Part shown: positions 618 through 35,579 of the stretch, piece after piece | How the letters are laid out: each line of letters starts with the position of its first letter | How positions within the stretch are numbered: position 1 is the first letter of the stretch | Assembly: GCA_937877715.1 (NCBI GenBank) | Contig: CALEHW010000023.1 | Span: 21,290-85,289 of the forward strand | From: an uncultured Methylophaga sp. | GTDB taxonomy: Bacteria > Pseudomonadota > Gammaproteobacteria > GCF-002020875 | Direction: 5' to 3' | DNA: 64,000 nt | The notes under the pieces: generated by a model | What the model saw: only the letters and a program-made list of their open reading frames with translations | Told to the model about the DNA's origin: nothing | The model's database searches: none | Program-made: the position numbers and the translations under genes

Positions 618-620
618 CAC

Positions 621-3767: not shown

Positions 3768-5639
3768 GTGCAACCACAAACCAAACAGGAACATATTGTA
3801 GAAATCGTCAGTGATTCCGGAGAAGGGGCGCAGAAGTGCGGACAGACCTTCGGAACCATCAGTGCAAAGATGGGGAATGGTGTCTGGACAGTAGAGATCA
3901 TTCCCGCTGAGATCCAGCCACCGGCACGAACCCCTTCCGGGGCCAGCGGCATCCGTATCAGACTCGGCTCAAAAGAGATTACTAATGTAGGTAACGAGGG
4001 TGATCTGGTAGTCGCCTTCAATGAGCAGGTTCTCTACTCCAGAATTGCAAATGGTGCTTATAAAGAGGGAACTGTGGTTCTGCTTGATAACCGCTGGGAG
4101 AGTGATCGCTCTACCGAGATTCAGCAGATGTACAAGAAGGCTGTTGCGGAGTTTCGAGACCATGGATTGGTTGTCCATGAACTACCAATCCACGAGGCCT
4201 GCCTAAAAGTTGTCAAAGATCCCCGCAAGGGGAAAAACATGTTTGTCCTTGGTATGCTCTGCCGAATATACAACCGTGACAAAGAGATGGGGCGCAATGA
4301 GATTGCACTCACCTTTGCTGGCAAGGCAGAGAAGATCATCACCAGCAACCAGAAACTGTTTGATGCCGGATACCAATTTGCAGCCGAGCAGCTTGGTGAA
4401 TATTTCTTTGAAATCCCAACTCGTGAAGACCGTAGTGACAGCCCAATGGTGGTCACAAATGGAAATACAGCTGTCGGCCTTGGAGTGATGGCCTCGGGAA
4501 TGGAGCTAGTCTCCATGTACCCGATTACCCCAGCCACCTCAGCCTCGCACTACCTTGCCGATGTGTTTCCAGCCGCAGGTGGCTTTGTCCACCAGGCAGA
4601 GGATGAGATTGCAGCAATCGCCTTTGCCATTGGTGCCTCCTATGCAGGTAAAACTGCCTGCACCATCACCTCCGGACCAGGTATGGCCCTAAAGACCGAG
4701 AATATTGCCCTAGCGGTAATGGCAGAGGTTCCCCTTGTAATTGTCAATGTTCAACGAGGCGGCCCATCCACTGGACTCCCCACCAAGATTGAACAGGGTG
4801 ACCTGCTCTCCGCACTTTATGGCGAGCCGGGTGATGCACCTAAAATTATCCTTGCAGCAGCAACTATCGCAGAGTGTTGCAGTATGGTGGTGCTGGCCAG
4901 AAAGCTGGCAGAGTCATTCCGTACCCCGGTAATTGTATTAACCGATGCCAACCTGGCAACCGGAGTACAGCCATGGGAACGTCCAGAGTTGAGTCGTGAC
5001 ATGCTGGCTCCACCTCTCGACCAATCAGAGTGGAATAGTGATATTCCCGCTTATGACTGGGATGAAAAAACCGGACTCTCACAACGTCCCATCCCGGGCA
5101 TGCCGAATGGTGAATACGTACTTACCGGACTCTCTCACACCAAACAGAGCAAGGTCTCATACGAATCTGCAGAAAACCAGTACAGCGCCACTATGCGTAG
5201 CCGTAAACTGGCCACCCTGCAGAGCACCCTGACCCCACCTAATATCCATGGGGACGAGAGTGGAGATATGTTGGTGGTTGGTTGGGGATCTACCTTTGGT
5301 GCAATCGAGGAGGCAGTCGATAATCTGCGGACAACGGGCGAGAAAATCTCATCAATCCATCTGCGCTTCCTCTCACCTCTGGAGCCTGGATTGACCGAGA
5401 TCTTCTCCCAATTTAAAAAGGTTATAACAATTGAGGTGAACTACAGTGATGACATCAATGCACCGATGATCACCACTGAAAATCGCCGCTATGCACAACT
5501 GGCAATGGTGCTTCGTGTTCAGACCCTGGCAGATGTCGACTGCTGGTCGGCAGTCTACGGCCATCCCCTGCAACCAGAGATGATCGGTAATGTTCTGCAG
5601 GAACGTCTAAACCAACTCAACAAGAAAACAGGAGAATAG
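3768..5639 (+). CDS. korA: 2-oxoglutarate:ferredoxin oxidoreductase alpha subunit (two-subunit Kor type; gamma+alpha domains).
   Basis: 623 aa with a GTG start. N-terminal SDSGEGAQKCGQ (gamma-domain glycine motif). YPITPATSASHYLAD is the hallmark YPITPxS motif of 2-oxoacid:ferredoxin oxidoreductases. Confidence 0.85.
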   Translation: MQPQTKQEHIVEIVSDSGEGAQKCGQTFGTISAKMGNGVWTVEIIPAEIQPPARTPSGASGIRIRLGSKEITNVGNEGDLVVAFNEQVLYSRIANGAYKEGTVVLLDNRWESDRSTEIQQMYKKAVAEFRDHGLVVHELPIHEACLKVVKDPRKGKNMFVLGMLCRIYNRDKEMGRNEIALTFAGKAEKIITSNQKLFDAGYQFAAEQLGEYFFEIPTREDRSDSPMVVTNGNTAVGLGVMASGMELVSMYPITPATSASHYLADVFPAAGGFVHQAEDEIAAIAFAIGASYAGKTACTITSGPGMALKTENIALAVMAEVPLVIVNVQRGGPSTGLPTKIEQGDLLSALYGEPGDAPKIILAAATIAECCSMVVLARKLAESFRTPVIVLTDANLATGVQPWERPELSRDMLAPPLDQSEWNSDIPAYDWDEKTGLSQRPIPGMPNGEYVLTGLSHTKQSKVSYESAENQYSATMRSRKLATLQSTLTPPNIHGDESGDMLVVGWGSTFGAIEEAVDNLRTTGEKISSIHLRFLSPLEPGLTEIFSQFKKVITIEVNYSDDINAPMITTENRRYAQLAMVLRVQTLADVDCWSAVYGHPLQPEMIGNVLQERLNQLNKKTGE

Positions 5640-5641
5640 TC

Positions 5642-6604
5642 ATGTTTGGAATCAAGGCAGACTGGTCCCTAGATATTCAGGAACGTTATTTCACTCTCGA
5701 TGATTATGAGGGCAATGAGGCACGCTGGTGTTCTGGTTGTGGTGATCATGCCGTACTGGCAACAGCCCACCGTATCCTGCGTGACGCACAGCTTCCACCT
5801 GAAAAATCTGTTTTTGTCTCAGGTATCGGTTGCTCCAGCCGTATGCCCCACTATATGGCTACCTATGGGCTACATGGAATCCATGGACGAGCCCTGCCAC
5901 TAGCATGTGGCGTCAAGTCACGCCGCCCTGATCTGGATGTCTGGGTTGCCACCGGAGATGGTGACTGTTACTCTATCGGTGCCGGTCACTGGATCCATGC
6001 TGTGCGATACAATATGGATATGACCGTACTGATTTTTGACAACCAGATTTATGGGCTAACCAAAAAACAGACATCCCCAACCAGTCCAATTGAACTAAAG
6101 ACCAACACCCACCCTGAAGGTGCCTCCCTGGATGCCATGAATCCCAACACAGTAACCCTGGGCATTACCAATGCATCCTTTGTGGCACAGGTGGTTGACT
6201 GGAACCCTCCCCTGCTACACGAGACACTCAAGGCTGCCCATGCCCACAAGGGAGCCAGCTTTGTACGCATCATTCAGCGCTGCCCGGTCTTTGTCGACTC
6301 CATCACCAAGGAGCTACAGGAAGATGCCTCACGTCTGCGGCTACTGACTCATGAGAATGGTATCCCGGTTGCCAAGGGGGTCGAAAAACTGTTCCCGGAT
6401 AGCGTAGAGCATGATCCGTCAGATATGGCAGGGGCACTCAGAATTGCACGAGACGAGACCGAAAAAGGGATTATTCCGGTTGGACTTCTCTACCAGAACC
6501 AGAACATCCCCTGTTACAGCGACCTCTCTGGTCAGGGCGTTGAGACTACAGATGAAGAGAAGATTGCAGCAACCAATGCAGCATTGGATGTATTTGCAAT
6601 ATGA
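5642..6604 (+). CDS. korB: 2-oxoglutarate:ferredoxin oxidoreductase beta subunit (TPP-binding).
   Basis: 320 aa. WCSGCGDH is the characteristic Cys motif. TGDGDCYSIGAGHW...DNQIYGLTKKQ is the TPP GDG...N motif. Lies 3 nt after korA. Confidence 0.85.
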   Translation: MFGIKADWSLDIQERYFTLDDYEGNEARWCSGCGDHAVLATAHRILRDAQLPPEKSVFVSGIGCSSRMPHYMATYGLHGIHGRALPLACGVKSRRPDLDVWVATGDGDCYSIGAGHWIHAVRYNMDMTVLIFDNQIYGLTKKQTSPTSPIELKTNTHPEGASLDAMNPNTVTLGITNASFVAQVVDWNPPLLHETLKAAHAHKGASFVRIIQRCPVFVDSITKELQEDASRLRLLTHENGIPVAKGVEKLFPDSVEHDPSDMAGALRIARDETEKGIIPVGLLYQNQNIPCYSDLSGQGVETTDEEKIAATNAALDVFAI

Positions 6605-9069
6605 GTAGCGCACCCTCCCTTCCTGTTCTCAAGTCAACTCGACCGGACCCAAAGTCCGAGGCCGCCATTCTGCGAACACTCCACCACTTCCATCTGGGAG
6701 ACCCCAGCGTGGAACAGGAGACCAGAGAGATCGGCAGCGACTACCTGCCAGCACTGTTGAATCCATTTCGTGACGCCTCCAAACTACGTTATGACTATCC
6801 ACTGATTCTCTTCTCCAGAGACTCGAAGCAGGATATTGCGCAGCCACTTACCTTATTTCTACAAGAGTCTGTCGCAGAGTTTGCCCCTGGGGAGAATAGT
6901 GCACGCATCCTCAAGGATAATCTCACCTGGCTAGAGCACGCTATTCGCAGCGAAATTACAGATAGTGAGAGACCAATTGGTCTCTCCCCAATCATGCAAC
7001 GTGCAATCGAGGCGCTACAGCAGCACCTATCTCTCTCGGGCGAAAACAAGGATAAACTGCAGAACGATCTTGACCAGCTACAAAAACAGTTTACTGATCA
7101 GGACAAGTTTCTCACCTACAATCGCTACACTGCAATCCATCTGATGATTCATCTGATCCATGGAAGATCAGAGGAACGCTGGGATGAATTTGAGAGCGAG
7201 CTTGAACAGCTACAACAACAACTGTCAAAAATACTGGAGATTGAGCAGAGCAAGTCCAAAGAGGCAATGGGTGCAGATGCTATGCAGAAAAGCGTAGGCA
7301 GCAGCGCATCCCGATTCAATCCTGAGGCTCTCTCATCTATTCTTCCCCATAGTGCCGGCACAGTGGCAATGTCGGATGAACGAAAGGAGCGTATCAGCCG
7401 CGCTGCAGAGACTCTAGACCAATTCAACCGTGACCCCATTCAGGTGCACTTCATCCATACTGGAGACTTCTCTGGGGATTGGAGTGATAGCAGTGTACAT
7501 TTCAAAACCACTATCGACGCAGACCCATGCCACAAGGCAGCGGAACTATTCGATGAGGAGGCCAATAATCTGGCAGAACTGTTCAGTGCCTGCAGGATTG
7601 CGCGCCTAGAAATAAACAACAGCTATGATCCCATTGTGCATGATCCATGGTTTGCCAATTTTAACTGGGAGGCCTTCTCTGAAGAGGAGTTATTGCTGGT
7701 TCCAGCAATTGTTGCCTTGGAGCCTGCCGATAGGCTGGGACATGAAGGACTAAACTCGTTTTCTCAGTTATTGGGGTCGGGCAGGCCAATTCAGATCCTC
7801 AGCCGAGTCAAGGGGCACAGCAACCCGGCAGCCACTGAAGATGAATCTCCATTTCATGATTTCCGTCTGGAGCTGGGATACCTCGCAACAGCCCACCGCC
7901 AATGTTATGTCGCCCAGACCTCAGCAGCACGTTACCAGCATCTAATGCAGGGCTTCCTTGAAGCGACAGAGATACCACGGACCGGGGTACATCTAATTAA
8001 CACTGGAATTCAGCATGCCGATGACGACTTCCTGATGGACCCATGGATGGTTGCCAGTGCAGCCCTCGAGGGACGTGTACACCCCTTCTTCCGGATGAAT
8101 CCAGAACGGGGAGACACCTTTGCAGAGCGCATGGATTTCAGCATAAATCCGCAGCCGGAGAGAGACTGGGCGACCCACCCTTTCAGTTACAAAAACGAGT
8201 CCGGTGAGGTTACCCATACCGAATTCGCATTCACCTTTGCCGATTACGCACTACTGGTTCCACGCCTACAAAACCATTTTCGCCTGATTCCAGATGACTT
8301 TGAATCAGACTCTCTAACCCCTATTGCAGAGTATCTTGACTGCTCCAATGAGGAGAGTTTCTCACTAGTACCGTTTGTCTGGGCCATCAATGAGGACAAT
8401 ATTCTTCACAGGGCAGTAGTCTCACGCGAACTAATCCTTGCCTGCAAGGACCGCCTCAACTACTGGCACACCCTGCAAGAGCTATCTGGAGTTCGGAACC
8501 TACATGCAGAGCAGGCCGTAACTGAGGCTCAGCTGCTTATGGAGGCAAAACAGAACAGTGTAATCAGCGAACTAAATGCCGCACATGATAAGGAGATCAA
8601 CCAACTCAGAGCCGATGCAACAACCGAGGTGATGGGGAAACTGGCCCAAGTATTGATGGGAATGAATCTTGGGGCAAGATCGAGCGACCTTGAACATGGA
8701 TTCTCCTCTCCTCCCCCCACAGAGGCAGTCCTCCAAACTCCAGATAGTGAACCGACCAAGGTAAGTAAGGAGGAGGCCAAGGATCAGGTTACGGAAGAGG
8801 AGCCTGAAGCAGAGATTTCGGAAGACCCATGGATTGAGTCTATTCTATGCACTACCTGCAATGACTGTACTGACATGAATCCTCAGATGTTTGTCTACAA
8901 TGATGACAAGCAGGCCTATATTGCCGACCCTAATGCCGGAACCTATGAGGAGCTGGTCGAGGCAGCAGAGATATGTCCCTCACGCTGCATCCATCCCGGC
9001 CTTCCGCTCAACAGTAGTGAGCCCAACCTAGATGAGCTGATCGAGAGAGCAGCCCCCTTCAATCAGTAG
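6601..9069 (+). CDS. Large uncharacterized protein. N-terminal approx 330 aa are unknown and helical. The central region resembles PFOR domain VI but has no GDG motif and no proximal-cluster Cys. The C-terminus is a single [4Fe-4S]/[3Fe-4S] ferredoxin domain.
   Basis: 822 aa. Overlaps the korB stop as ATGA. The region ...YVAQTSAARYQHLMQGFLEATEIPRTGVHLINTG...HPFFRMNPERGDTFAERMDFSINP aligns by eye to the PFOR C-terminal region (YVAxVSMG...PGPSLxIAYSPC...WPLYRYNPxxxxxGKNPFxLDS). The C-terminal CTTCNDCTD...FVYNDDKQAYIADPN...CPSRC is the pattern of single-cluster ferredoxins (Pyrococcus/Thermotoga Fd type). It shares the helical motif AHDKEINQLRAD with the 1286-aa protein (GHQQEINNLRNQ). Confidence 0.6.
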   Translation: MSSAPSLPVLKSTRPDPKSEAAILRTLHHFHLGDPSVEQETREIGSDYLPALLNPFRDASKLRYDYPLILFSRDSKQDIAQPLTLFLQESVAEFAPGENSARILKDNLTWLEHAIRSEITDSERPIGLSPIMQRAIEALQQHLSLSGENKDKLQNDLDQLQKQFTDQDKFLTYNRYTAIHLMIHLIHGRSEERWDEFESELEQLQQQLSKILEIEQSKSKEAMGADAMQKSVGSSASRFNPEALSSILPHSAGTVAMSDERKERISRAAETLDQFNRDPIQVHFIHTGDFSGDWSDSSVHFKTTIDADPCHKAAELFDEEANNLAELFSACRIARLEINNSYDPIVHDPWFANFNWEAFSEEELLLVPAIVALEPADRLGHEGLNSFSQLLGSGRPIQILSRVKGHSNPAATEDESPFHDFRLELGYLATAHRQCYVAQTSAARYQHLMQGFLEATEIPRTGVHLINTGIQHADDDFLMDPWMVASAALEGRVHPFFRMNPERGDTFAERMDFSINPQPERDWATHPFSYKNESGEVTHTEFAFTFADYALLVPRLQNHFRLIPDDFESDSLTPIAEYLDCSNEESFSLVPFVWAINEDNILHRAVVSRELILACKDRLNYWHTLQELSGVRNLHAEQAVTEAQLLMEAKQNSVISELNAAHDKEINQLRADATTEVMGKLAQVLMGMNLGARSSDLEHGFSSPPPTEAVLQTPDSEPTKVSKEEAKDQVTEEEPEAEISEDPWIESILCTTCNDCTDMNPQMFVYNDDKQAYIADPNAGTYEELVEAAEICPSRCIHPGLPLNSSEPNLDELIERAAPFNQ

Positions 9070-9076
9070 CAAACTG

Positions 9077-9940
9077 ATGAATAGCTTGCTTGCCTCTCCA
9101 GCCATCATGATGGGAATTGGCCTCTTCTTTGGGGTGATTCTTGCTGTGGCCTACCGCCTGCTAAAGGTGGACGAAGACCCAAGAATTGATGAGACCGAGG
9201 AGATGCTGCCCGGCACCAACTGTGGCGCCTGTGGTGTCCCGGGCTGCCGCGCCTTTGCCGAGGAGCTGATCAGGGGCACTGCCGAACCGAGTCAGTGCAC
9301 GGTTGCCCCCAAGGATGAGATCGTGGAGATTGCAGATTTTCTCGGAGTTGATGCAGGATCACAGATCAAGCGGGTTGCCCGCCTCCACTGTGCCGGCGGC
9401 AAGGCCGAGGCCTGGCAGATTGCAGAGTACCGGGGGTTTGACAGCTGCCGTGCGGCCGCCGTGGTATCCGGTGGCGGCAAGGGGTGTTCCTGGGGATGCC
9501 TTGGGCTGGCCGACTGCGAGATAGCCTGCAATTTCGATGCTATCCATATAAACAGTAATGGACTACCTGTAGTAGATCCGGAGAAATGTACAGCCTGTGA
9601 GGATTGTGTTGTTGCATGCCCCAAGGATCTCTTCAAGATCCATCCTGTCAACGAACACCTGTTTGTGCAGTGCAGTGCCCCTCTGGAGGGGGACGCCATC
9701 CTCTCTCTTTGCAGTGCCGCCTGTGACAGCTGCAGCCGTTGTGCCTCAGACTCCAACCCTGGCCTAATAGAGATGGTCGACGGACTACCCGTTGTTGACT
9801 ACAGCAGCGGGGCCGAAGAGAGTCCCGATGCTACCTGGCGCTGCTCAACCGAGGCCATTATCTGGCTTGATGGTGGACAGTTTGATCAACAAAACCAAAA
9901 CATGACCGAAGGTCAGAAACGTTATGCCCAGCTTCGCTGA
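9077..9940 (+). CDS. rnfB: Rnf electron transport complex subunit B (polyferredoxin).
   Basis: 287 aa. N-terminal membrane anchor followed by LPGTNCGACGVPGCRAFAEEL, the RnfB signature. Multiple CxxCxxCxxxCP motifs downstream. Confidence 0.85.
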   Translation: MNSLLASPAIMMGIGLFFGVILAVAYRLLKVDEDPRIDETEEMLPGTNCGACGVPGCRAFAEELIRGTAEPSQCTVAPKDEIVEIADFLGVDAGSQIKRVARLHCAGGKAEAWQIAEYRGFDSCRAAAVVSGGGKGCSWGCLGLADCEIACNFDAIHINSNGLPVVDPEKCTACEDCVVACPKDLFKIHPVNEHLFVQCSAPLEGDAILSLCSAACDSCSRCASDSNPGLIEMVDGLPVVDYSSGAEESPDATWRCSTEAIIWLDGGQFDQQNQNMTEGQKRYAQLR

Positions 9941-12900
9941 AATTGCCAACCGCATCTATCGTAAAGTTCTCGGTGTAGATGGCACCGTGGGGGAAGACAA
10001 GAACAGCATCTCTGTGCTGCTCGATGGTGCCACCGCAGTGGCCACTGTCGAGGCGATACTCTCCGAGGCTGCAGCCAGTGGCGAAACCTTCCCTCCAGAG
10101 AGGGGATCAAGTGCCTGGCGTAGCGAACAGCAGCGCCAGCAGGTAAACCTGTTCGGAAAACCACTGCTACAGATGGAGAGTAACACCCCTCGCGGCTCTC
10201 TCTCTGCCGCCATGGGTCTTGCAATGGCTGGCAGACGAGCTTTCTGCAGCCTCTGGTCGAGCGATCTTGCCGCCTCACAAGATCTGGTTCGCAGAGCAGT
10301 TGGCCGCCACCTGCCACTGGTTATCCATACCATTAATCGTGCACTCCCTCTAAACGGAGAGAGCCTTGGCGGAAGTGATGAGGGAATCCACCAACTGACA
10401 AATAGTGGGGCATTCATCCTCTTTGCCGAGAATGGTCAACAGGCAGTTGATTTCACTCTGATCGCCCGTGCCGTTGCAGAGCGAGCCCTGGTTCCCGCAA
10501 TCGTGGTCATGGATGGTGACGAGACTGCATTTGCATCTCAACAGATCGATCTCCCATCTCCTGAACTGATTGAAAAACTTATCGGCAACAGCTCCGACCC
10601 CATATCAATTGCTGACCCGGCACAGCAGCTGCTGTTTGGTGATGAACGCCGCAGGGTGCCGGGCTGGTACAGCCTGGACCACCCCACCCTGCAGGGGAGT
10701 TATCGTGACCGCCACAGCTTTGGAACTGGAGCGGTCTCTCACACCACCTTCTTTGGAAAACAGGTTAAGGGAATTCTGCATGAAATCTTTGGTGAGTTTG
10801 CAGACTTAACCGGAAGAAACTACAGCTCCCTTAACTACCATGGTAAAAAAGGTGCAAGGAAGATAGTAATCACCCAGGGAGCCATTACTGGACGCTGCCG
10901 CACAATTGTCGATCTATTGCAGAAGAGAGAGAAGATCTCGATCGCGGTTGTTGGAATAGGGACTACTGCCCCCTTCCCTGCCGCAGAGCTGGGAGAAATT
11001 CTACAAAATTGCCAGGAGATCACCCTGTTCGATCGCAGCGAACCTCTGCTAAACGAGCTCCCTCCACTGTACAGTCAGGTGGCCCCACTCATTCCAGCTA
11101 ACTGCAGATCCGCATCCATCATTTATGGGGTTGGCGGAACCCCAGTCAATGATGCCGACCTGATCGCCGCCTGCATGGCTCCACACAACAGATCAGCTGG
11201 TGAAGTCCCCGTCTACCGAATGGGAATAACCACACTAGCCGACAATAGCAATCCAAAACAGCAGGTACTCAGGGATCTGCTGGAAAGAAACTATCCACAG
11301 CTGGCAGAGCTGGGAATCAGAGAAGAAGATTCTGCCGCAGAGGAGAGCCCAGCAACACCATCCGTCTTGCGGGCATCCGCAGGAGGCGAAACGCCCACCC
11401 ACCGGACGCCAATGGCGGTACGACACCTTGGCAAACAGGGTGGTGTCGGCCACGCTGGATACCACAACCTGTCACGATTCTGGGATCAGACCGGTCTGCT
11501 CTATCGGGATGGAATGGAGAGTAGACAGGGGGTTGATCCATTTGCTGCCGCTGCTCACATACCACCACTGACATCAACATTTTCCAGCGTTGGGGATGGA
11601 TCCATTCCATTCTTCAATCCGGAAAACTGTAGTGGATGTGGCAGCTGCTGGAGCAACTGCCCAGACAGCGCTATTGGCGCCGTCTCCATACTACCCAGCA
11701 AACTACTGGAATCAGCCCTACAGATGGGAGGAGCAGATGCACTACGCCCACATCTCTCCGAGCTATCCAGGGAAATAAGCCTTACTACCGAAAGTGGAGA
11801 GGCTGGCACTATTATCCGAAAGAGCTGGGATACGATAATGGAACAGTCCCCTCTTTCAGAGGAGAGAAGAGCCAGTGCCGAGGATGCCATAACAACACTT
11901 ATCTCTAATATCGGCGCCCTCCCGGTTGCCCATACAGAACCACTATTCCATCAGCCGGAACGGCTTAAGGCTCAATCAGGTGAACTACTCTCTGTGGTCA
12001 TCAACCCTGATAGCTGTAAGGGGTGCGGAATATGCACCCGCCTCTGTCAGGATGAGTCTAATCGACAGGAGATTGAAAATCCCGCCCTCACCATGATGGA
12101 GCAGGATAGTAAAGATAGAGAGAACAGTTATCACACCTGGAGCATCTGGGAACAACTCCCAGATAGTGCCTCAACCACACTGGTCAATTATGGGACATAT
12201 CCCGATATAGGTCAGCTCAATGCAACCATGCTCTCTCGCTACGCCTCCATGACCATGGCTGGTGGAGATTCTGCAGAGCCAGGCTCTGGAGAGAAGATTG
12301 TTGTTCGTCAGCTACTGGGGATTACTGAATACCATCAACAACCACTTGTTCGTCAACTTCTCAAGGAGATGGATGAGAAACAGAGTGGGCTGGTTGCAGG
12401 GATTCGCGAAAAACTGGCTACAGCATCCCATGCAGATGATCTCTCTCTTCTGGCAGAGGGGCTGGGGAATCTATCCAGTCGTCAGCTTGATCTAACCACC
12501 CTGGCAGAAAAAACTGCTGGTATTGAGGGTGACAGTGTAGATGCCCACGAGCTGAAAGAGTGGGTAGAGCTTGCCGAATCCATTCGCATAGAAAAGGAGA
12601 AGATCGAGAAGGGAGAACACTCTCTGGGACGTGCTCGCTACAGTCTGGCCTTCGCCTCGGGAACCGCTGCCACCTGGGCTGGCACCTTCCCCTACAACCC
12701 ATTCCAGGTTCCGGTAGTAATTGGAGAGGCTGGGGAGATCGGGGCTCTGGCCTCAGGATTGATGGAGGGACAACTAGAGCAGACAACTGAAGTCCACCGC
12801 CTTCTCCGCAAGGCAAAGGCCTTGCTCAAGGGGAGACTTCCTGCCGAGCGCAAGGAGATAGACAAAACAACATGGGGAGACCTTACCGCAGATGAGCTGC

Positions 12901-13784
12901 AACAGTGCCCTCCCATGCTGCTTATTGGGAATGACACTACACTGGGTGCAGGATCTGCCGGTGAGCTCAACTGGATTCTCAACAGCAGGCTCCCCATCAA
13001 GATTATCGTGCTGGCAGAGATGGATCTTGGCTTTAGCGAGGCTCATGCAGACTCCAGATCAGAGCTTGCCATGGCTGCCCTCTCCCAACGCGGTGCATAT
13101 GTGGCCCAGTGCTCCATCGCGGCACCAGAGCAGATGAACCGAGCAATGCGTGAGGCCCTAAACTACCCAGGCCCTGCACTATTGCGGCTCCACGCCCCAA
13201 GCCCACAACGCCACGGATTTGGCCCCGAGATGACTACTGTCCAGGCAGAACGAGCAGTAAATGGACGTGCCTTCCCACTATTCAGTTACAACCCGGAGGC
13301 AACAGGGGTGTTTGGTACCCGCATCAGCCTTGGGGGCAACCCGGAGAGTGAGATCTCCATCGCAGAGTGGGCCTTCCATGAGGGGCGCTTCTCCGGACAA
13401 TTCCAACCCTTATCTCCTGCACTGCAGAGCCAATCTGCAAATCTTGAGGAGTGGCTCAAACTGGATGAGAGGGGGCAAAACAACAAGACACCAATATTCA
13501 ACGAGTATGCAATCGAACCGGATTTTGCACGTCGACTGGGGCAACTTGTCGAACAGTGGCAGATGCTGCAGGAGCTGGCCGGTATCGTCACCCCATTTAC
13601 CGAAGATGTCAGAGAGCAGGCAGACAAGGCAATTGCTGAGAGTCACCAAAGAGAAATTGACGAGTTGAAAAAGGGACACCAGCAGGAGATAAACAACCTG
13701 CGCAACCAACTGGAATCCGAGATTACCCAGAGGATTACCGAACGCCTAGTTGCACTAACTGAAACCCAGAAAAAACCAAACTAA
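9924..13784 (+). CDS. Divergent pyruvate:ferredoxin oxidoreductase (PFOR/NifJ)-like protein. It keeps the two-cluster ferredoxin domain but apparently lacks the proximal-cluster cysteines. It has an insertion of about 170 aa and a coiled-coil C-terminal tail.
   Basis: 1286 aa. Domain-I-like region DGATAVATVEAI...MGLAMAGRRAFCSLWSSDL...LPLVIHTINRAL matches PFOR DGNTAxAHVAYA...HGALAAGALTTTFTASQGL...LPGVFHVSARA. Ferredoxin domain CSGCGSCWSNCP + CKGCGICTRLC (8 Cys). Domain-VI-like region IGNDTTLGAG...YVAQCSIAAPEQMNRAMREALNYPGPALLRLHAPSPQRHGFG...FPLFSYNP. The positions of the PFOR proximal-cluster ligands (GACxGCGE, ATGCSS, SPC) read AGGDSAEPGS, ASGTAATW and SPQ. Confidence 0.65.
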   Translation: MPSFAEIANRIYRKVLGVDGTVGEDKNSISVLLDGATAVATVEAILSEAAASGETFPPERGSSAWRSEQQRQQVNLFGKPLLQMESNTPRGSLSAAMGLAMAGRRAFCSLWSSDLAASQDLVRRAVGRHLPLVIHTINRALPLNGESLGGSDEGIHQLTNSGAFILFAENGQQAVDFTLIARAVAERALVPAIVVMDGDETAFASQQIDLPSPELIEKLIGNSSDPISIADPAQQLLFGDERRRVPGWYSLDHPTLQGSYRDRHSFGTGAVSHTTFFGKQVKGILHEIFGEFADLTGRNYSSLNYHGKKGARKIVITQGAITGRCRTIVDLLQKREKISIAVVGIGTTAPFPAAELGEILQNCQEITLFDRSEPLLNELPPLYSQVAPLIPANCRSASIIYGVGGTPVNDADLIAACMAPHNRSAGEVPVYRMGITTLADNSNPKQQVLRDLLERNYPQLAELGIREEDSAAEESPATPSVLRASAGGETPTHRTPMAVRHLGKQGGVGHAGYHNLSRFWDQTGLLYRDGMESRQGVDPFAAAAHIPPLTSTFSSVGDGSIPFFNPENCSGCGSCWSNCPDSAIGAVSILPSKLLESALQMGGADALRPHLSELSREISLTTESGEAGTIIRKSWDTIMEQSPLSEERRASAEDAITTLISNIGALPVAHTEPLFHQPERLKAQSGELLSVVINPDSCKGCGICTRLCQDESNRQEIENPALTMMEQDSKDRENSYHTWSIWEQLPDSASTTLVNYGTYPDIGQLNATMLSRYASMTMAGGDSAEPGSGEKIVVRQLLGITEYHQQPLVRQLLKEMDEKQSGLVAGIREKLATASHADDLSLLAEGLGNLSSRQLDLTTLAEKTAGIEGDSVDAHELKEWVELAESIRIEKEKIEKGEHSLGRARYSLAFASGTAATWAGTFPYNPFQVPVVIGEAGEIGALASGLMEGQLEQTTEVHRLLRKAKALLKGRLPAERKEIDKTTWGDLTADELQQCPPMLLIGNDTTLGAGSAGELNWILNSRLPIKIIVLAEMDLGFSEAHADSRSELAMAALSQRGAYVAQCSIAAPEQMNRAMREALNYPGPALLRLHAPSPQRHGFGPEMTTVQAERAVNGRAFPLFSYNPEATGVFGTRISLGGNPESEISIAEWAFHEGRFSGQFQPLSPALQSQSANLEEWLKLDERGQNNKTPIFNEYAIEPDFARRLGQLVEQWQMLQELAGIVTPFTEDVREQADKAIAESHQREIDELKKGHQQEINNLRNQLESEITQRITERLVALTETQKKPN

Positions 13785-13816: not shown

Positions 13817-14995
13817 ATGAACCTCCACGAATACCAATCCAAACAGCTCTTTGAGCAGGTAGGCATCCCCATCCCCAAGGGCAAAACAGTTGAGAGACTG
13901 AATGATGTAGAGCAGGCAGCAGATGAGATTGGCGGCTCTGCATGGGTTGCCAAGGCACAGGTTCATGCCGGCGGCCGCGGCAAAGCCGGGGGGGTCAAAA
14001 TTGCCAGCAGCAAGGATGAGCTTGCTACATTCACCAATGAGATGCTTGGTGGAACCCTGACCACCCCACAGACTCATGGCCGGGCACTACCAATTCAGAA
14101 AGTCCTGATCGAGCAGACCCTGGATATCGGTCGCGAACTCTATCTGGGCGCACTGGTTGACCGCGATCGCGAACAGATTGTCTACATGGCATCCGCTGCA
14201 GGTGGCATGGATATCGAGCAGGTTGCCGCCGAGACACCGGAGAAGATTCTCACCGTACATGCCCACAGCGCTGCCGGTCTACAGCCTTACCAGTGCCGTC
14301 AACTGGCGTTTGGTCTCGGACTGAAGGGAAAGCAGATTGGTGCGCTTACTCGTATCCTCAGCGGACTCCATATCCTATTCATCCATAACGACCTGAGCCT
14401 GGTCGAGATCAACCCCCTGATCGTTACGGTGAGTGGGGAGTTACTGGCACTGGATGCAAAGATTAACCTTGATGACAACGCTCTATATCGCCATCCCAAA
14501 CTGCAGGAGCTGCATGACCCATCTCAGGAGGACGCAAGGGAGCTGGAGGCGGGCAAGCATGACCTCAATTACATTACCCTGGATGGCAATATTGGTTGCA
14601 TGGTAAACGGTGCAGGCCTGGCAATGGCCACCATGGATCTTATCAAGCTCCATGGTGGAGACCCGGCAAATTTCCTCGATGTTGGTGGAGGCACAACCGC
14701 AGAACGGGTAGCTGCCGCATTCAAACTAATCCTCAGTGACTCCAAGGTAGAGGCCATTCTGGTAAACATCTTTGGCGGCATTGTCCGTTGTGACCTTATC
14801 GCCGAGGGGATTATCACTGCAGTAAAAGAGGTGGGAGTAGAGATACCGGTAATTGTCCGCCTCGAGGGGACCAATGCCCCTCAGGGGATGGAGCTATTGA
14901 AAAAGAGCGGCCTTGATATTGATGTCGAAGAGACCCTGACCGGCGCCGCCAAAAAAGCAGTCGCCTCCACCACGTCAACAGGAGAAGGGGCATGA
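13817..14995 (+). CDS. sucC: Succinyl-CoA synthetase beta subunit (ATP-grasp).
   Basis: 392 aa. [12 protein letters not shown]...[17 protein letters not shown] is a near-canonical SucC N-terminus. Confidence 0.9.
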
Positions 14996-15879
14996 GTATC
15001 TTGATCAACGCAGAGACCCGCGTCATCGTACAGGGATTTACCGGAAAACAGGGTACCTTCCATGCCGAGCAATCCATCGCCTATGGCACCAATATTGTCG
15101 GTGGCGTCACCCCCGGCAAGGGTGGCCAGAGCCATCTTGATCGACCCGTATTCAATACCGTAGCTGATGCGGTGACAGAGACTGGTGCAGATGCCACCAT
15201 GATCTATGTCCCCGCAGCCTTTGCTGCCGATGCAATATTTGAGGCCGCCTCGGGTGGAATCAAAACCATTGTCTGCATTACCGAGGGGATCCCGGTTCAG
15301 GACATGATCAAGGTTAAAGCATTCCTGAGCGACTACCCCGATACCCACCTTATTGGACCCAACTGCCCCGGCATCATCACTCCAGGTAGCAACAAAAATG
15401 GCTGCAAGATTGGAATCATGCCAGGAAATATCCACCAGGAGGGCTCCGTAGGAATCGTCTCCCGCTCCGGAACACTCACCTATGAGGCAGTATTCCAGAC
15501 CACCAATGAGGGGCTGGGACAAAGCACCTGTATCGGAATTGGTGGAGATCCGATTCATGGCATGAACTTTATCGACTGCCTGGAGCTATTCCAGCAGGAT
15601 GAGCAGACCAAAGGAATTGTTCTGGTTGGCGAGATTGGCGGCAGCAAGGAGGAGGAGGCTGCCGAATATATCCGCAACAGTGTCACCAAGCCGGTAGTTG
15701 CCTATATTGCCGGAGTTACTGCACCTCCAGGACGAAGAATGGGCCACGCCGGTGCCATCATCTCCGGCGGCAAGGGTACAGCCGAGGACAAGATAGCCGC
15801 ACTCGAGGCTGTCGGGGTAACAGTCTCCCGCTCCCCGGCCGAGATTGGCAAGCACATGGCAGAGCTATTAAATAGCTAA
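14992..15879 (+). CDS. sucD: Succinyl-CoA synthetase alpha subunit.
   Basis: 295 aa. Rossmann CoA-binding N-terminus [12 protein letters not shown]. Phosphohistidine loop [15 protein letters not shown]. Overlaps the sucC stop as ATGA. Confidence 0.9.
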
Positions 15880-15888
15880 CCAGTTGAT

Positions 15889-17238
15889 ATGGGCCTTCTC
15901 TCAAGCTTCAAACGCAGCTTTTCTCACGGTGTACATCCTGCCCACTACAAGGGGCAGACCGAGAATCTCGCGATTCAACGTGTCCCTTTTGGCAATCGCT
16001 ATGTGATGCCACTAGGACAGCACATTGGGGCGCCAGCAATTGCTGTCGTCAACAAGGGGCAGCATGTCGGTCGAGGTGAGCTGATTGCCAAGCCAGGAGG
16101 GTTCATCTCAACAGCACTCCACAGTCCAGTCACAGGAACAGTCACTGAGATCTCCCCGCAACGAACCCTGGATGGATCCTTCAAGCCTACAATTGTGATT
16201 GAGGCAGATCCATTCTCCGCACAGAGAGTTGAGACCACCCCACCCGCCTCATGGGAGGAGTTATCTATTGAGGAGTTCATCGAAACAGTTCAGCAGGCGG
16301 GAATTGTTGGGATGGGAGGCGCCGCCTTCCCCAGCCACGTCAAATACTCGATTCCAGATGGTGCACATATTGATGATCTTCTGGTCAATGGTGCCGAGTG
16401 TGAGCCATTCCTAACCAATGACCACCGACTGATGGTTGAGCGTCCCGAGACGGTAATTCAGGGAACAGAGATCCTGCGGCAGAAACTGGGGGCAAAACGG
16501 GCCAATATCGGGATCGAGAGGAATAAACCAGAGGCGATAAGAGCACTGGAAAAAGTTCTGGAGAAGAGTCCATCCCTGCCTATTACGCTATCCCCGCTGG
16601 AGGTCAAATACCCTCAGGGCGCAGAGAAGATGCTGATCCAGTCTGTCTACCGCAAAGAGGTTCCGGCGGGCCAGCTCCCCAGAGATATTGGGGTTGCCGT
16701 CAATAATGTAGGAACCGTTGTAGCCATTGCAGACCTGTTTGCGACCGGTGCCCCACTCATAGAGCGCGTTGTTACCGTCTCCGGACCGGGAATCGATCAA
16801 CCTGCAAACCTGATGGTGCCACTTGGTACACCAGTTCGTGACCTACTCAGTTTCTGTGGCGGGCTCAACGATAAGACTCGCGAGATCATTATGGGCGGAC
16901 CGATGATGGGGTTTCCCATCACCAGCCTGGATGTACCAATACTGAAGGGCAGCTCCGGAATTCTTGCATTCACCGAAGAAGAGACAGCACGCCCACATGA
17001 ATACCCGTGCATCCGCTGTGGCCGCTGCCTGGAGGCATGCCCCTATTTCCTCAACCCATCTCGTCTGGCGCTGTTGAGCCGTAACCGACGCTACGAAGAG
17101 ACTATGGATTATCACGTAATGGATTGTGTAGAGTGCGGGGCCTGCAGTTTTGCCTGCCCCTCAAATATCCCAATAGCTCAGTTGATCAGAACAGCCAAAG
17201 ACAATCTCAGGCAAAACCCTGTAGAGGAGGCTGCATGA
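15889..17238 (+). CDS. rnfC: Rnf complex subunit C (NADH/FMN-binding, 2x[4Fe-4S]).
   Basis: 449 aa. GMGGAAFPSHVKY (NuoF-like FMN/NADH motif). CIRCGRCLEACP and CVECGACSFACP. Confidence 0.85.
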   Translation: MGLLSSFKRSFSHGVHPAHYKGQTENLAIQRVPFGNRYVMPLGQHIGAPAIAVVNKGQHVGRGELIAKPGGFISTALHSPVTGTVTEISPQRTLDGSFKPTIVIEADPFSAQRVETTPPASWEELSIEEFIETVQQAGIVGMGGAAFPSHVKYSIPDGAHIDDLLVNGAECEPFLTNDHRLMVERPETVIQGTEILRQKLGAKRANIGIERNKPEAIRALEKVLEKSPSLPITLSPLEVKYPQGAEKMLIQSVYRKEVPAGQLPRDIGVAVNNVGTVVAIADLFATGAPLIERVVTVSGPGIDQPANLMVPLGTPVRDLLSFCGGLNDKTREIIMGGPMMGFPITSLDVPILKGSSGILAFTEEETARPHEYPCIRCGRCLEACPYFLNPSRLALLSRNRRYEETMDYHVMDCVECGACSFACPSNIPIAQLIRTAKDNLRQNPVEEAA

Positions 17239-18251
17239 GCAAGAGAGATCCAGACCTTCTCCTACAGTCTGCGCCACTGCTTAAACAGGGGCTGAGTGTG
17301 CCTACCGCAATGCGTGATGTCCTGCTGGCCCTGATGCCGGCACTATTTGCGGGATTCTGGTTCTTTGGCCTCAGCGCCATTCTTGTGGTTGCAGCAACCA
17401 TTCTTGGTGCTATGGCAACCGAGTGGCTCTTCACCCCAAAACAGGAGCGGGCAGTTGCACTTGGTGACGGCAGCGCACTGCTGACCGGTCTACTGCTGGG
17501 AATGACTCTCCCCCCCGCCCTCCCTCTCTGGATGGCGTGGCTTGGCGGTGTGGTTGCAATTGGTCTTGGTAAAACCATCTGGGGAGGGCTCGGCAACAAC
17601 CTCTTCAACCCTGCCATTGTGGGACGTGCCTTCCTGCTGGGAACCTTTCCAATCGCCATGACCACCTGGCATGTGGCCGCAGGACCCGATTCATTCTTCC
17701 AGCTCCACCCCAGCACCCTTGCCCTCCCCTTCATGCAATCCCCCCCAATGGACGGGATGAGTGCAGCCACCCCACTGGGTCTGATGAAATTCGAGCAGAT
17801 CGACTCCCCGATCTTCTCCCTGATGTTTGGGAACAGCTCCGGCTCCCTGGGAGAGACCAGCGGGGTACTGCTGATGGTTGGTGGACTCTACCTGCTCTTG
17901 CGTCGCGCCCTGGAGTGGAGAATTCCCTTGGCAATTTTTATCTCTGCCGGACTCTTCACCCTACTGCTAGAGACCATAGACCCTGCACGCTTCCCCGGTA
18001 TACACTTCACCATCTTCTCTGGCGGAATGATGCTGGGGGCCATCTATATGGCAACCGACCCGGTCACCTCCCCGGTCACCCCCAAAGGGGCCTGGATATT
18101 CGGTTGTGGTATCGGGGTTCTGGTGGTACTGATTCGTAACTTCGGCGGGCTCCCGGAGGGAATACTCTATGCGATCCTACTCATGAATGCCGCCACACCG
18201 CTGATTAACCGCTACACTCAGCCCCGGGTCTTTGGCAGGAGCAGGTCATGA
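17235..18251 (+). CDS. rnfD: Rnf complex subunit D (membrane subunit with covalent FMN).
   Basis: Polytopic membrane protein. SAATPLG contains the FMN-attachment Thr. ATG at 17235 overlaps the rnfC stop as ATGA, so I prefer it to the longer ORF-track start at 17124. Confidence 0.8.
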   Translation: MSKRDPDLLLQSAPLLKQGLSVPTAMRDVLLALMPALFAGFWFFGLSAILVVAATILGAMATEWLFTPKQERAVALGDGSALLTGLLLGMTLPPALPLWMAWLGGVVAIGLGKTIWGGLGNNLFNPAIVGRAFLLGTFPIAMTTWHVAAGPDSFFQLHPSTLALPFMQSPPMDGMSAATPLGLMKFEQIDSPIFSLMFGNSSGSLGETSGVLLMVGGLYLLLRRALEWRIPLAIFISAGLFTLLLETIDPARFPGIHFTIFSGGMMLGAIYMATDPVTSPVTPKGAWIFGCGIGVLVVLIRNFGGLPEGILYAILLMNAATPLINRYTQPRVFGRSRS

Positions 18252-18943
18252 CAGAGCCGGCTGACCAGAGACCAAATAGCACGAATGAGGCTCCACCACC
18301 AGTGGTGATGGAGCCGAGCTCAATCAGACTTATCTCCACCCTGGCAATTGCCGGGCTTGTCTCCGGTATTGCAATTGTCGCCATCTATGAGGCCACCCTG
18401 CAGACCATCACCGAAAACAAGGCTCGAGAGCTGCGCGAGGCCGTATTTAAGGTGCTGCCAGGGGTTAGCAAGATGAAAAAATTTCAGCTTGAGGAAAATG
18501 GCATCCGCTTCCGTGCCGAAGAGGGCAAGGATGAAAATACCATATATGGGGGATACAACCAGCAGGGAGAATTTGTCGGTTATGCCCTCCCCAGTGCCGG
18601 TCCCGGCTTTCAGGACACTATCGGAATACTCTACGGGTACATCCCGGAGTCCCGCAAGGTTGTGGGAATGGAGATCCTGGAGAGCCGTGAAACCCCGGGG
18701 CTGGGAGACAAGATATACAAGGACCTCTCCTTCGTCTCCAATTTTGATAACCTCTCCATCGACCCTGAGATTGTCACCATCAAGAAGGGGATGAAAAGTG
18801 CCGCCAATGAGGTAGATGCCATTACCGGGGCAACCATCTCCTCCAAGGCAGTTGTTCGCATCATCAACGAGGGTAACGAACGCTGGATAAACCAGCTTCC
18901 CACTTATGGGATCCCCCTACCTGAAGAAGGGAGTCCAGAATAA
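18248..18943 (+). CDS. rnfG: Rnf complex subunit G (periplasmic FMN-binding).
   Basis: 231 aa. N-terminal TM helix. ITGATISSKAV is the flavinylation motif. Confidence 0.8.
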   Translation: MTEPADQRPNSTNEAPPPVVMEPSSIRLISTLAIAGLVSGIAIVAIYEATLQTITENKARELREAVFKVLPGVSKMKKFQLEENGIRFRAEEGKDENTIYGGYNQQGEFVGYALPSAGPGFQDTIGILYGYIPESRKVVGMEILESRETPGLGDKIYKDLSFVSNFDNLSIDPEIVTIKKGMKSAANEVDAITGATISSKAVVRIINEGNERWINQLPTYGIPLPEEGSPE

Positions 18944-19596
18944 TGGCAAAAACACCAGAGAGCGTATACCAGGAGATGCTCAAGGGAATCTGGAGAGACA
19001 ACCCGGTCTTTGTCCAGGTACTAGGGATGTGTCCAATGCTGGCGGTCACCAACTCCGCAGTCAATGCACTGGCGATGGGGCTGGCCACATTCTTTGTACT
19101 GGTTGGCTCCAGCCTGCTGGTCTCGATGATGCGCAAGTGGATCCCCAAACAGGTCCGAATCTCCAGCTACATCATTATTATCGCCACCTTTGTAACCATC
19201 ATTGACTACACCCTACTGGCGCTGTTTCCCAAGATCCACAAGGAGCTGGGAGCATTCATTCCACTGATTACCGCAAACTGCCTGATCCTTGGGCGACAGG
19301 AGGCCTTTGCCTCACGCAACAGTGTCCGTTTTGCAGTGATGGATGCGGTGGGCATGGCGGGGGGATTCCTCTTTGCCCTGCTGGCACTTGGTGGGGTACG
19401 CGAGATTCTCGGTGAGGGGGCGCTGTTTGGAGTATCCCTGTTTGGCCCCAATTTTGAGCCCTGGATAATCATGATCCTGCCACCTGGCGGATTCCTTACC
19501 CTGGGGTTAATTCTGCTCTTCTTTAACTGGGTTACAGAGAAGCACAAAGAGGCACAGATGCGTCTGCTACAGCCAGCTGAGGAGAGATCATCATGA
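18943..19596 (+). CDS. rnfE: Rnf complex subunit E (NqrD/RnfE family).
   Basis: 217 aa polytopic membrane protein. VLGMCPMLAVT and LITANCLILG resemble the NqrDE/RnfAE conserved Cys helices. Confidence 0.8.
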   Translation: MAKTPESVYQEMLKGIWRDNPVFVQVLGMCPMLAVTNSAVNALAMGLATFFVLVGSSLLVSMMRKWIPKQVRISSYIIIIATFVTIIDYTLLALFPKIHKELGAFIPLITANCLILGRQEAFASRNSVRFAVMDAVGMAGGFLFALLALGGVREILGEGALFGVSLFGPNFEPWIIMILPPGGFLTLGLILLFFNWVTEKHKEAQMRLLQPAEERSS

Positions 19597-20186
19597 TGAC
19601 AGATGCCGCCTTCCAGCACTTTCTCTGGATATTTATCAGTGCCCTGCTAGTCAACAACTTCGTGCTGGCCTACTTCCTTGGACTCTGCCCCTTCCTGGGC
19701 GTATCCGGAAAGCTTGAGACCTCATTCAGGCTTGGTCTTGCCACCACCTTTGTACTGATCATCACCGCCATCTGTGCCTGGATACTCAACACCTACGTAC
19801 TTCCCCACGCCCCCTACCTGCGGCTGATCAGCTTTATTGTGGTGATCGCCAGCGTGGTGCAGTTTATCGAGATGTTGATCAAGAAGCTGAGCCCGGCCCT
19901 GTTCCGATCACTTGGAATCTTCCTGCCACTGATCACCACAAACTGCGCCATCCTCGGACTCGCCATCTTTGCCACCAATCGTGAATATAGTTTTGCCGAG
20001 AGCATTATATTCGCCCTCGGTGCTGGCGGCGGATTTACCCTGGCGCTGCTGCTAATGGCAGGATTGCGTGAGGAGAGCGAACTCTCCGATGTCCCCACCC
20101 TGATCCGAGGCACCGCTTTCAACCTGATCATTGCGGGAATTCTCTCCATGGCCTTTATGGGCTTTGCCGGACTCTTCTCGTCATGA
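19593..20186 (+). CDS. rnfA: Rnf complex subunit A (NqrE/RnfA family).
   Basis: 197 aa. FLGLCPFLGVS and LITTNCAILG are RnfA-type motifs. Confidence 0.8.
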   Translation: MMTDAAFQHFLWIFISALLVNNFVLAYFLGLCPFLGVSGKLETSFRLGLATTFVLIITAICAWILNTYVLPHAPYLRLISFIVVIASVVQFIEMLIKKLSPALFRSLGIFLPLITTNCAILGLAIFATNREYSFAESIIFALGAGGGFTLALLLMAGLREESELSDVPTLIRGTAFNLIIAGILSMAFMGFAGLFSS

Positions 20187-34183: not shown

Positions 34184-34355
34184 CTCCCCCCTCCTAACAA
34201 AAACTAAGGAATCTAAAGAAGTCGCTTCACAACTTATTCAGAGCTCCCTTGCAAGTTATCTGATTGTGGGAAGGAGAATAAAATAAATGCGTTGTAATAA
34301 GCATAATTCTGTTCCTTCCCCCACCCCCCTCCCACAGAAATTTTTCATGGTACCC

Positions 34356-35521: not shown

Positions 35522-35579
35522 TATTCAATACTCCTTGAGAACGGACGGGGAGAATTCTCTCCCCATCCTCCTCTTGCTA

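Follow-up and report, generated by a model that had tools for sequence, protein, structure and literature searches.

Locus and gene order

The window analysed here is the whole stretch of 64,000 nucleotides from an uncultured Methylophaga sp. (contig CALEHW010000023.1, positions 21,290 to 85,289). The gene under study is an open reading frame (ORF) at 6601..9069 on the forward strand, encoding a protein of 822 amino acids (aa), hereafter the 822-aa protein. Its sequence marks it as a pseudoenzyme derived from pyruvate:ferredoxin oxidoreductase (PFOR), with a tethered ferredoxin domain. By sequence comparison, its family is a widespread and uncharacterised pseudoenzyme offshoot of the 2-oxoacid:ferredoxin oxidoreductase (OFOR) superfamily, whose members probably move electrons between the membrane complex Rnf and a CO2-fixing 2-oxoglutarate synthase in sulfur oxidisers.

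The gene belongs to a co-directional string, on the forward strand. Upstream are located a Fe-S protein gene (63-617), the gene of a TfrA/FrdA-like flavoprotein (621-2258), whose best NCBIfam match is TfrA, below cut-off, the gene of a NuoF-like flavin mononucleotide/NADH subunit (2255-3511), korA (3768..5639), encoding the OFOR alpha subunit with domains III, I and II, and korB (5642..6604), encoding an intact OFOR beta subunit. Downstream are found rnfB (9077..9940), for the membrane-anchored poly-ferredoxin subunit of Rnf (Pfam FeS and Fer4; TIGR01944, 78.8 against a cut-off of 68.7), a gene for a paralogous pseudo-PFOR of 1286 aa, with domains I', II, V, VI' and a tail (9924..13784), sucC and sucD, for succinyl-CoA synthetase (13817..15879; Pfam), and rnfC, rnfD, rnfG, rnfE and rnfA (15889..20186); mdh follows rnfA in the string. 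The ATG of the 822-aa gene (6601-6603) overlaps the korB TGA (6602-6604) as ATGA, as already read in an earlier note made from the sequence alone. No competing ORF of any size was found at the gene on either strand, and its base composition is that of the neighbouring genes.

For KorA and KorB, the best solved-structure match is the two-subunit 2-oxoglutarate:ferredoxin oxidoreductase (OGOR) of Magnetococcus, 6N2N (E 1.9e-82, KorA with 6N2N_A, and 5.8e-49); the domains of KorA were assigned by Pfam, and its NCBIfam match, TIGR03710, is above cut-off. In KorB the cluster cysteines C30, C33, C64 and C214 are all present, together with GDGD. Neither subunit contains a Fer4 domain according to Pfam, in agreement with the earlier claim that the two-subunit KorAB has no ferredoxin domain of its own. 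The two-subunit enzyme of Magnetococcus marinus is said, after Chen et al. 2019, to work with a free ferredoxin partner. KorAB of the window is of the same type and likewise without a built-in ferredoxin domain, but its presumed partner is encoded directly downstream, fused to a large pseudoenzyme body. The architecture of the M. marinus enzyme is (alpha-beta)2 (PMC12337175).

Derivation from long-form PFORs

A protein identical to the ORF product exists in public data (P0001). The family comprises 329 word-index matches and 2,583 clusters at 50% identity (E<=1e-3), with relatives in at least 559 GTDB species genomes. Fer4_13, at the C-terminus, is the sole Pfam domain: the body has no Pfam match, the protein has no NCBIfam match, and a sequence search of PDB chains hits the ferredoxin domain only, leaving the body unmatched.

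A search with the 1286-aa protein surfaced proteins of 1,650-1,730 aa (P0210, P0212), indicated here as long-form PFORs (about 1,650-1,750 aa as a class), which contain the full PFOR domain set with intact GDG motif and cluster cysteines, and have at their C-terminus the series of linker, Fer4_13 domain and terminal helix seen in the 822-aa protein. By BLASTP, residues 313-821 of the latter align to residues 1156-1732 of P0210 (1,732 aa; E 3e-73). When hhalign is run against a long-form target of three PFORs (four sequences, two nearly identical), the match covers residues 47-822, aligned to P0210 residues 779-1732 (probability 100, E 8e-82); it begins at the strand entering the first domain-V cluster, where LPALLxPFRDxSKLRYDYPL faces IPAATSAVRDMTDIRFEVPDF. 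The core had been described in the earlier note as the C-terminal half of the PFOR thiamine pyrophosphate (TPP) domain: homology to domain VI is confirmed, but the co-linear region is much wider. The alignments indicate that the 822-aa protein descends from a long-form PFOR of Rnf operons, carrying its own C-terminal tethered ferredoxin, and that it is a truncated, inactivated copy of the whole V-VI-extension-ferredoxin module of this Rnf-linked lineage. Relatives of 1,120-1,565 aa, where degenerate domains I and II precede the whole 822-like module, occupy the same operon position and, judging from their sequences, look like intermediates of N-terminal truncation.

Long-form PFORs, found for example in Longimicrobiales and Gemmatimonadales, share with the 822-aa protein the co-linear series of domain V, domain VI, extension, long helix, linker, ferredoxin and terminal helix, as well as the helical insert of domain VI and the korAB plus rnf operon layout. 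They keep domains I-IV, the domain-V clusters, the proximal cluster and the GDG/TPP site, and therefore look catalytically competent, while the 822-aa protein has none of these features; conversely, Cys796 is present only in the 822 family. Long-form PFORs are annotated only as '2-oxoacid:acceptor oxidoreductase family protein', and no experimental study of them was found in the literature. A related long-form PFOR, the 1,657-aa P0215 from Propionicimonas (L089 8001-15700), is followed not by rnf but by the gene of a 909-aa GltD/NfnB-like NAD(P)H oxidoreductase; Pfam detects no Fer4_13 in P0215, and the arrangement suggests an alternative, NAD(P)-coupled partner.

Compared with canonical PFORs (Desulfovibrio africanus 1B0P, M. 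thermoacetica 6CIN), the 822-aa protein is devoid of the TPP/Mg motif, the proximal [4Fe-4S] cluster and the partner pyrimidine-binding (Pyr) domain; the same three losses separate it from OFOR beta subunits (M. acetivorans PorB 9BT4, M. marinus OGOR 6N2N, H. pylori OorB 8YS5). Relative to both groups it gains helical inserts, a C-terminal extension of about 150 aa and the tethered ferredoxin. The pyruvate:NADP+ oxidoreductase of Euglena and Cryptosporidium is an active PFOR with a C-terminal NADPH-cytochrome P450 reductase-like flavoprotein. In this system the electron acceptor is likewise placed at the C-terminus of the PFOR chain, but there a flavoprotein is carried by an active enzyme, here a ferredoxin by a dead scaffold.

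Parts and fold of the 822-aa protein

Invariant cysteines and tether composition were counted in 38 relatives, on which an AlphaFold2 model was also built (mean predicted local distance difference test, pLDDT, 73.8). In the model a mostly helical N-terminal third leads into a six-stranded alpha/beta core (about residues 281-530). After a mixed domain and a helix of 52 residues (634-685), pLDDT drops below 40 for about 60 residues, and the chain closes with a small ferredoxin fold and a terminal helix.

All coordinates of the single parts refer to the forward strand. Residues 47-170 (6739..7110) form a putative remnant of PFOR domain V, in which the LPALL-containing motif reported above is kept, while both [4Fe-4S] cysteine motifs are absent. 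The helical insert (residues 171-280; 7111..7440) is modelled as helices between 177 and 274, with pLDDT mostly 80-95, except for a poorly modelled portion at about 221-260 (about 53-71). It is located between the lost CxxC motif (YNRYTAIHL vs GCGEKTAVHL) and the first strand of the PP (TPP-binding) fold; in the motif alignment it is common to the 822-aa protein, the 1286-aa protein and long-form PFORs, and absent in canonical PFOR and KorB. The PP fold itself, typical of OFOR beta subunits and PFOR domain VI, corresponds to residues 281-530 (7441..8190), without GDG, Mg/PP loop, and Cys3 and Cys4 of the proximal cluster; its presence places the protein in the OFOR superfamily as a homologue.

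A C-terminal extension domain follows (residues 531-633; 8191..8499; …FTFADYALL…PFVWA…DRLNYWHTLQELSGV), present also in the 1286-aa protein and in intact long-form PFORs, and then a single long helix (residues 634-686; 8500..8658), which holds AHDKEINQLRAD, paralogous to GHQQEINNLRNQ of the 1286-aa protein. An acidic linker rich in Pro, Ala, Ser and Thr, poorly conserved and predicted to be disordered (residues 687-745; 8659..8835), tethers the mono-cluster [4Fe-4S] ferredoxin domain (residues 746-800; 8836..9000). The chain ends with a conserved helix, EPxLDELIERAAPFN (residues 801-822; 9001..9066), which also ends the intact long-form PFORs and is a possible docking element. As judged from the alignment of relatives, the PP-fold body is kept under purifying selection and is nearly as conserved as the ferredoxin domain: the majority fraction is 0.70 in the PP-like region, 0.78 in the ferredoxin domain and 0.40 in the linker. 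Purifying selection has likewise preserved the extension, the long helix, an acidic linker of about 50-65 residues and the ferredoxin domain.

For residues 1-280, structure comparison gave no match among solved folds. Taken alone, the N-terminus matches the 1286 family weakly in hhalign (P 1.3e-3, probability 19%), and the intact long forms in two co-linear segments (each P about 2-3e-4); the segment 47-170 alone scores P 2e-4 against long-form PFORs, and also aligns to the 1286-aa protein from residue 545 onward. Since residues 47-822 are co-linear with intact PFORs, the N-terminus is most likely composed of a degenerate remnant of domain V and of a helical insert within domain VI, an assignment that these alignments make likely without proving it. 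A weak but co-linear alignment with the same PFOR parent argues against an unrelated addition. The earlier statement that the N-terminal ~330 aa match nothing recognisable holds for PDB and Pfam, but probably not for the long-form PFORs.

Loss of the catalytic site

Motifs were compared with those of canonical PFORs, of KorB of the window and of intact long-form relatives. In the 822-aa protein, CxxCGE, containing the first two proximal-cluster cysteines, is replaced by TYNRYT, and TGCSS, containing the third, by TGDFS; at the fourth, APC (APC(I/P)) becomes INT (INT…G). The TPP/Mg motif of working enzymes, GDG-X(~27)-N(T)GGQ, is absent: GGDG (IGGDGWAYDIG) is changed to EPAD (LEPADRLGHEG), a replacement retained across the family consensus, and the Mg/PP loop DTEVYSNTGGQ to RVKGHSNPAA; no GDG is found anywhere in the protein. 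Both the 822-aa and the 1286-aa protein have substitutions at GDG, at the NTGGQ loop and at all four proximal cysteines, elements that are intact in KorB, canonical PFORs and long-form relatives (P0210). A degenerate domain VI, without GDG or proximal cysteines, had been proposed in the earlier note, and the motif alignment agrees. Neither the Pyr domain (domain I) nor the CoA-binding domain III is detected in the 822-aa protein by Pfam or hhalign. With domains I-IV, both domain-V clusters, the TPP/Mg site and the proximal cluster lost, the protein cannot be an enzyme; its sequence is that of a catalytically dead PFOR relative.

The relationship with the 1286-aa protein, anticipated from a related helical motif near both C-termini, proved extensive. 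BLASTP aligns residues 355-689 to 1286 residues 983-1279 (E 4e-14), a segment spanning the AHDKEINQLRAD/GHQQEINNLRNQ helix, and profile-profile comparison extends this to residues 48-688 against 545-1278 (E 2e-37). The 1286-aa protein features recognisable domains I, II, V and VI; domain III is not recognisable by Pfam, there being no match to PF01558 (POR). Throughout its family, domain I is without YPITPS and without the catalytic Glu, the cysteines of the proximal cluster are gone (GGDSAEPGSGEK; HAPSPQRHG), and IGNDTT stands in place of GDG, while the eight domain-V cysteines (2x[4Fe-4S]) are invariant and are the sole conserved cluster set. Its NCBIfam PFOR score is 113.8 bits, against a cut-off of 911. 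By these sequence features the 1286-aa protein is itself a dead PFOR paralogue, retaining only the two domain-V clusters, so the 822/1286 pair is not an active PFOR. Because of their differing losses, the two proteins carry complementary redox parts, two domain-V clusters in one, a single tethered cluster in the other; by analogy with PFOR, a putative dimer of the two is plausible, and would be in line, indirectly, with this complementary loss and with the fused full-length intermediates that occupy the 822 position.

Most members of the 1286 family measure 1,460-1,580 aa. By comparison, the 1286-aa protein of the window and the relatives nearest to it (1,258-1,291 aa) fall short by about 200-250 aa, the gap being located between domains II and V, where domain III is expected.

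The tethered ferredoxin domain

Residues 749-798 match Pfam Fer4_13 (PF13370) with 37.6 bits, against a cut-off of 24.5, and the best PDB sequence match is D. africanus ferredoxin I (E 3.8e-5): a C-terminal single-cluster ferredoxin, as previously proposed, is therefore confirmed. The ligands, C750-x2-C753-x2-C756 and C792-P793, are invariant in 38 of the 38 relatives, as is the additional C796. Cluster ligation is predicted from these residues to be all-Cys, as in D. africanus and Thermotoga ferredoxins, and the label "Pyrococcus-type", given in the earlier note, has to be dropped, the Pyrococcus variant containing an Asp. Ligands (CxxCxxC…CP) and domain size are those of mono-cluster ferredoxins (D. 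africanus ferredoxin I, 1FXR/1DAX; T. maritima ferredoxin, 1VJW). In contrast to the free forms of about 60 aa, however, the domain closes an 822-aa chain behind an acidic tether of about 60 aa; it contains one more invariant Cys, and a conserved helix comes after the domain.

The tether is 48-67 aa long and contains 10-16 D/E versus 0-4 K/R in all 38 relatives; in the model its pLDDT is 31-38 over about residues 691-750, and 54 at 681-690. C796 (8986-8988, within CPSRC) is located four residues beyond the fourth ligand, in a position occupied by Ile in the intact fusions P0210 and P0212; it may be redox-sensitive or an alternative ligand. The domain contains the only cluster motif of the 822-aa protein, of Fer4_13 type, while PorD-like motifs sit in the 1286-aa paralogue. 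An OFOR delta subunit (PorD/KorD), which needs two CxxCxxCxxxCP motifs in about 70-130 aa, was accordingly rejected as an identity for the 822-aa protein.

Conservation of the gene order

Gene order was analysed in 82 loci, almost every one from a GTDB species of its own: the best 80 of at least 559 GTDB species-genome matches, and two non-redundant loci fetched earlier. KorB is encoded directly upstream of the 822 homologue in 66 of 74 informative loci, and the gene directly downstream is rnfB in 57 of 71; 49 of 58 have a 1286 homologue downstream, in most cases with rnfCDGEA after it. The order korA-korB-[822]-rnfB-[1286]-rnfCDGEA is thus found in most loci and is retained across about 60 species-level genomes. 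Carriers are sulfur-oxidising Gammaproteobacteria: Thiopontia-like metagenome-assembled genomes (MAGs; 74% identity), Sedimenticola, Thiodiazotropha, Thiosymbion, Thiomargarita and Chromatiaceae are among them, along with the tubeworm symbionts Endoriftia, Escarpia and Lamellibrachia. In Endoriftia, a small gene with a PF05635 (23S-rRNA-intervening-sequence-protein) domain is interposed between the 822 orthologue and rnfB (L001 12550-12972; L002 10479-10865).

A corresponding layout, korA-korB-X-rnfB-PFOR_Fd-rnfCDGEA-apbE, is found in Gemmatimonadota, with an intact PFOR-ferredoxin fusion (L087 275-14372; L090 3336-19044; L091 2511-18954; L088 214-10838). The PFOR of these loci, of about 1,700 aa, has intact catalytic motifs and ends in a tethered Fer4_13 ferredoxin. 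Since the layout is shared with a catalytically intact protein, the operon design predates the loss of catalysis; the features specific to the lineage (inserts, extension and tethered ferredoxin) go together with rnf. The Rnf-embedded PFOR-ferredoxin fusion appears to be an unstudied family; the search behind it returned 4,119 matches at E<=1e-50, other PFOR-like families included.

In Gemmatimonadota the position between korB and rnfB is taken by protein X (L087 3179-4252; L090 6231-7118; L091 5436-6677), 295-413 aa long and without Pfam match. By hhalign, X resembles residues 189-412 of the 822-aa protein weakly but co-linearly (P 6e-4, probability 28%), and it may represent a relative in which reduction has gone further and the ferredoxin domain is missing.

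Expression and previous mentions

No functional description of the family was found in the literature, where it is mentioned in gene lists only. Rubin-Blum et al. 2019 noted only a 'dimeric OGOR (korAB)' cluster (PMC6315080), and in Mitchell et al. 2024 the Endoriftia protein WP_006475426.1, adjoining KorA(3) and KorB(3), is listed as 'PFOR-like ferredoxin, possible PFOR' (PMC11636981, Supplementary Table 5). WP_006475426.1 was confirmed as an 822 orthologue. Under sulfide limitation its log fold change is -1.91, along with -2.62 for KorA(3) and -2.57 for KorB(3) (same table): in this one organism the orthologue is co-expressed with korAB. Public names of the family are 'ferredoxin', 'putative pyruvate flavodoxin/ferredoxin oxidoreductase' and 'pyruvate decarboxylase'.

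Proposed role and alternatives

Starting from the anatomy, the catalytic motif loss, the paralogy and the synteny described above, a scheme may be drawn for complex formation, cluster content and electron path. With a probability of roughly 0.55, the 822-aa protein is a dedicated electron-carrier/adaptor subunit, joining Rnf to the ferredoxin-less KorAB by means of a dead docking scaffold and a swinging tethered ferredoxin. The dead body would dock, by analogy with the PFOR homodimer, on KorAB and/or on the 1286-aa paralogue, while the tethered domain would swing between partners, moving low-potential electrons. Its partner on the KorAB side would be the single [4Fe-4S] cluster of KorB; on the Rnf side it would contact RnfB and the two domain-V clusters of the 1286-aa pseudo-PFOR. 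Since mdh, a soluble fumarate-reductase-like module, sucCD and korAB form a reductive branch from oxaloacetate to 2-oxoglutarate, the likely direction is one in which NADH and the ion gradient would drive electrons through Rnf and ferredoxin to KorAB, for the conversion of succinyl-CoA and CO2 to 2-oxoglutarate.

Several observations weigh against this scheme. The 80 genome loci, being the best-scoring of at least 559, are biased towards close relatives. A lone 822 gene amid unrelated neighbours is found in Thiocystis, Thiorhodococcus mannitoliphagus and some MAGs, and in Thiomargarita and Thiosymbion korAB and 822 occur with no adjacent rnfB or 1286, so that, as far as gene order shows, neither Rnf nor the 1286-aa protein is an obligatory partner. 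Co-occurrence of 822, 1286, korAB and rnf, suggested as a check in the earlier note, is therefore strong by the counts given above, but a gene that always travels with 1286 and rnf is ruled out by the orphan and korAB-only loci. Loss of the canonical TPP motif is still compatible with some other ligand, which the pocket may bind. The opposite flow, where oxidation of 2-oxoglutarate would feed Rnf, is mechanistically equally possible. Finally, the Endoriftia korAB set co-expressed with the orthologue goes down under sulfide limitation while the main reductive tricarboxylic acid (rTCA) cluster goes up (PMC11636981).

Among the alternatives, the protein might be an accessory subunit specific to KorAB, stabilising, regulating or protecting OGOR from oxygen, with the ferredoxin domain as a local electron buffer or redox sensor. 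The enzyme is oxygen-sensitive and the hosts are sulfur oxidisers of microaerophilic habit; korB is the most constant neighbour (66/74), even where rnfB and 1286 are not adjacent, and the extra invariant C796, near the cluster, is lacking in the intact fusions. A shielding of clusters is ascribed to domain VII in D. africanus PFOR (PMC12337175). The tether, long, flexible and acidic, and the conserved, docking-like C-terminal helix, however, suit a shuttle better than a fixed shield, and the same tethered ferredoxin is carried by intact PFORs encoded between rnfB and rnfC; such a role seems unlikely. Orphan copies, found amid unrelated genes in purple sulfur bacteria and some MAGs, and the plain public annotation 'ferredoxin' would rather fit a general soluble ferredoxin, serving several enzymes in trans, with a large inherited body and a merely historical operon position. 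We regard this as quite improbable: a body of about 690 non-ferredoxin residues, needless for a mere carrier, is strongly conserved, the gene order is kept across about 60 species-level genomes and recurs as a layout in another phylum, and in Endoriftia the gene is co-regulated with korAB.

JGI and UniRef names such as 'pyruvate-ferredoxin/flavodoxin oxidoreductase' and 'pyruvate decarboxylase', together with the recognisable domains I, II, V and VI of the 1286-aa protein, point to yet another role, in which 822 and 1286 would together work as a 2-oxoacid oxidoreductase of non-canonical type, such as a pyruvate synthase. The loss of motifs led us to reject an active pyruvate synthase, and any such activity is highly improbable: GDG and Mg loop, the four proximal cysteines, YPITPS and the catalytic Glu are gone, a loss conserved in both families; Pfam detects the CoA-binding domain III in neither protein; and NCBIfam leaves 1286 far below the PFOR cut-off (113.8 vs 911 bits) and 822 without a match.

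The adaptor role may be carried further. As a tentative and somewhat doubtful extension, KorAB, 822, RnfB, 1286 and RnfCDGEA might build one membrane-bound supercomplex, feeding 2-oxoglutarate synthase directly, by an internal wire and a swinging ferredoxin, without a free ferredoxin pool, and containing a pseudo-dimeric scaffold of two dead PFOR paralogues with three [4Fe-4S] clusters. If so, it would be an energy-coupled, 'ferredoxin-free' CO2-fixing machine, driven by an Rnf powered by the ion gradient, and its catalytically intact counterpart would be the PFOR-ferredoxin fusion with Rnf in Gemmatimonadota.

Ferredoxin-dependent carboxylations require electrons at about -500 mV. For microaerophilic sulfur oxidisers, among which are the symbionts of Riftia, lucinid clams and gutless worms, the supply route of these electrons has mostly been guessed, as has the identity of the ferredoxin that works with the two-subunit OGOR and with Rnf. 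The 822 family is a concrete candidate: its dead-enzyme scaffold, with the ferredoxin tethered to it, is encoded precisely between korAB and rnf. The 822/1286 pair also illustrates clearly how enzymes turn into scaffolds when duplicates lose complementary parts, and predicts a Rnf-OFOR supercomplex. Given their motifs, 1286-family genes labelled 'PFOR' in such genomes are very probably not pyruvate synthases, which matters for metabolic reconstructions counting PFOR copies.

Other features of the window

The trio upstream of korA (63-3511), which Endoriftia and many further relatives also have, resembles a soluble fumarate reductase linked to NADH, a bifurcating role also being possible. The rnf operon is split, as the 1286-aa gene and, in this lineage, sucCD part rnfB from rnfCDGEA. 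The rnfB and 1286-aa ORFs overlap by 17 nt, and rnfD, if read from the TTG listed as its start (17124), shares 115 nt with rnfC, the true start being probably elsewhere. At 34001-36000 a local dip in GC content is observed (0.468 vs ~0.53), with a strongly negative GC skew (-0.23).

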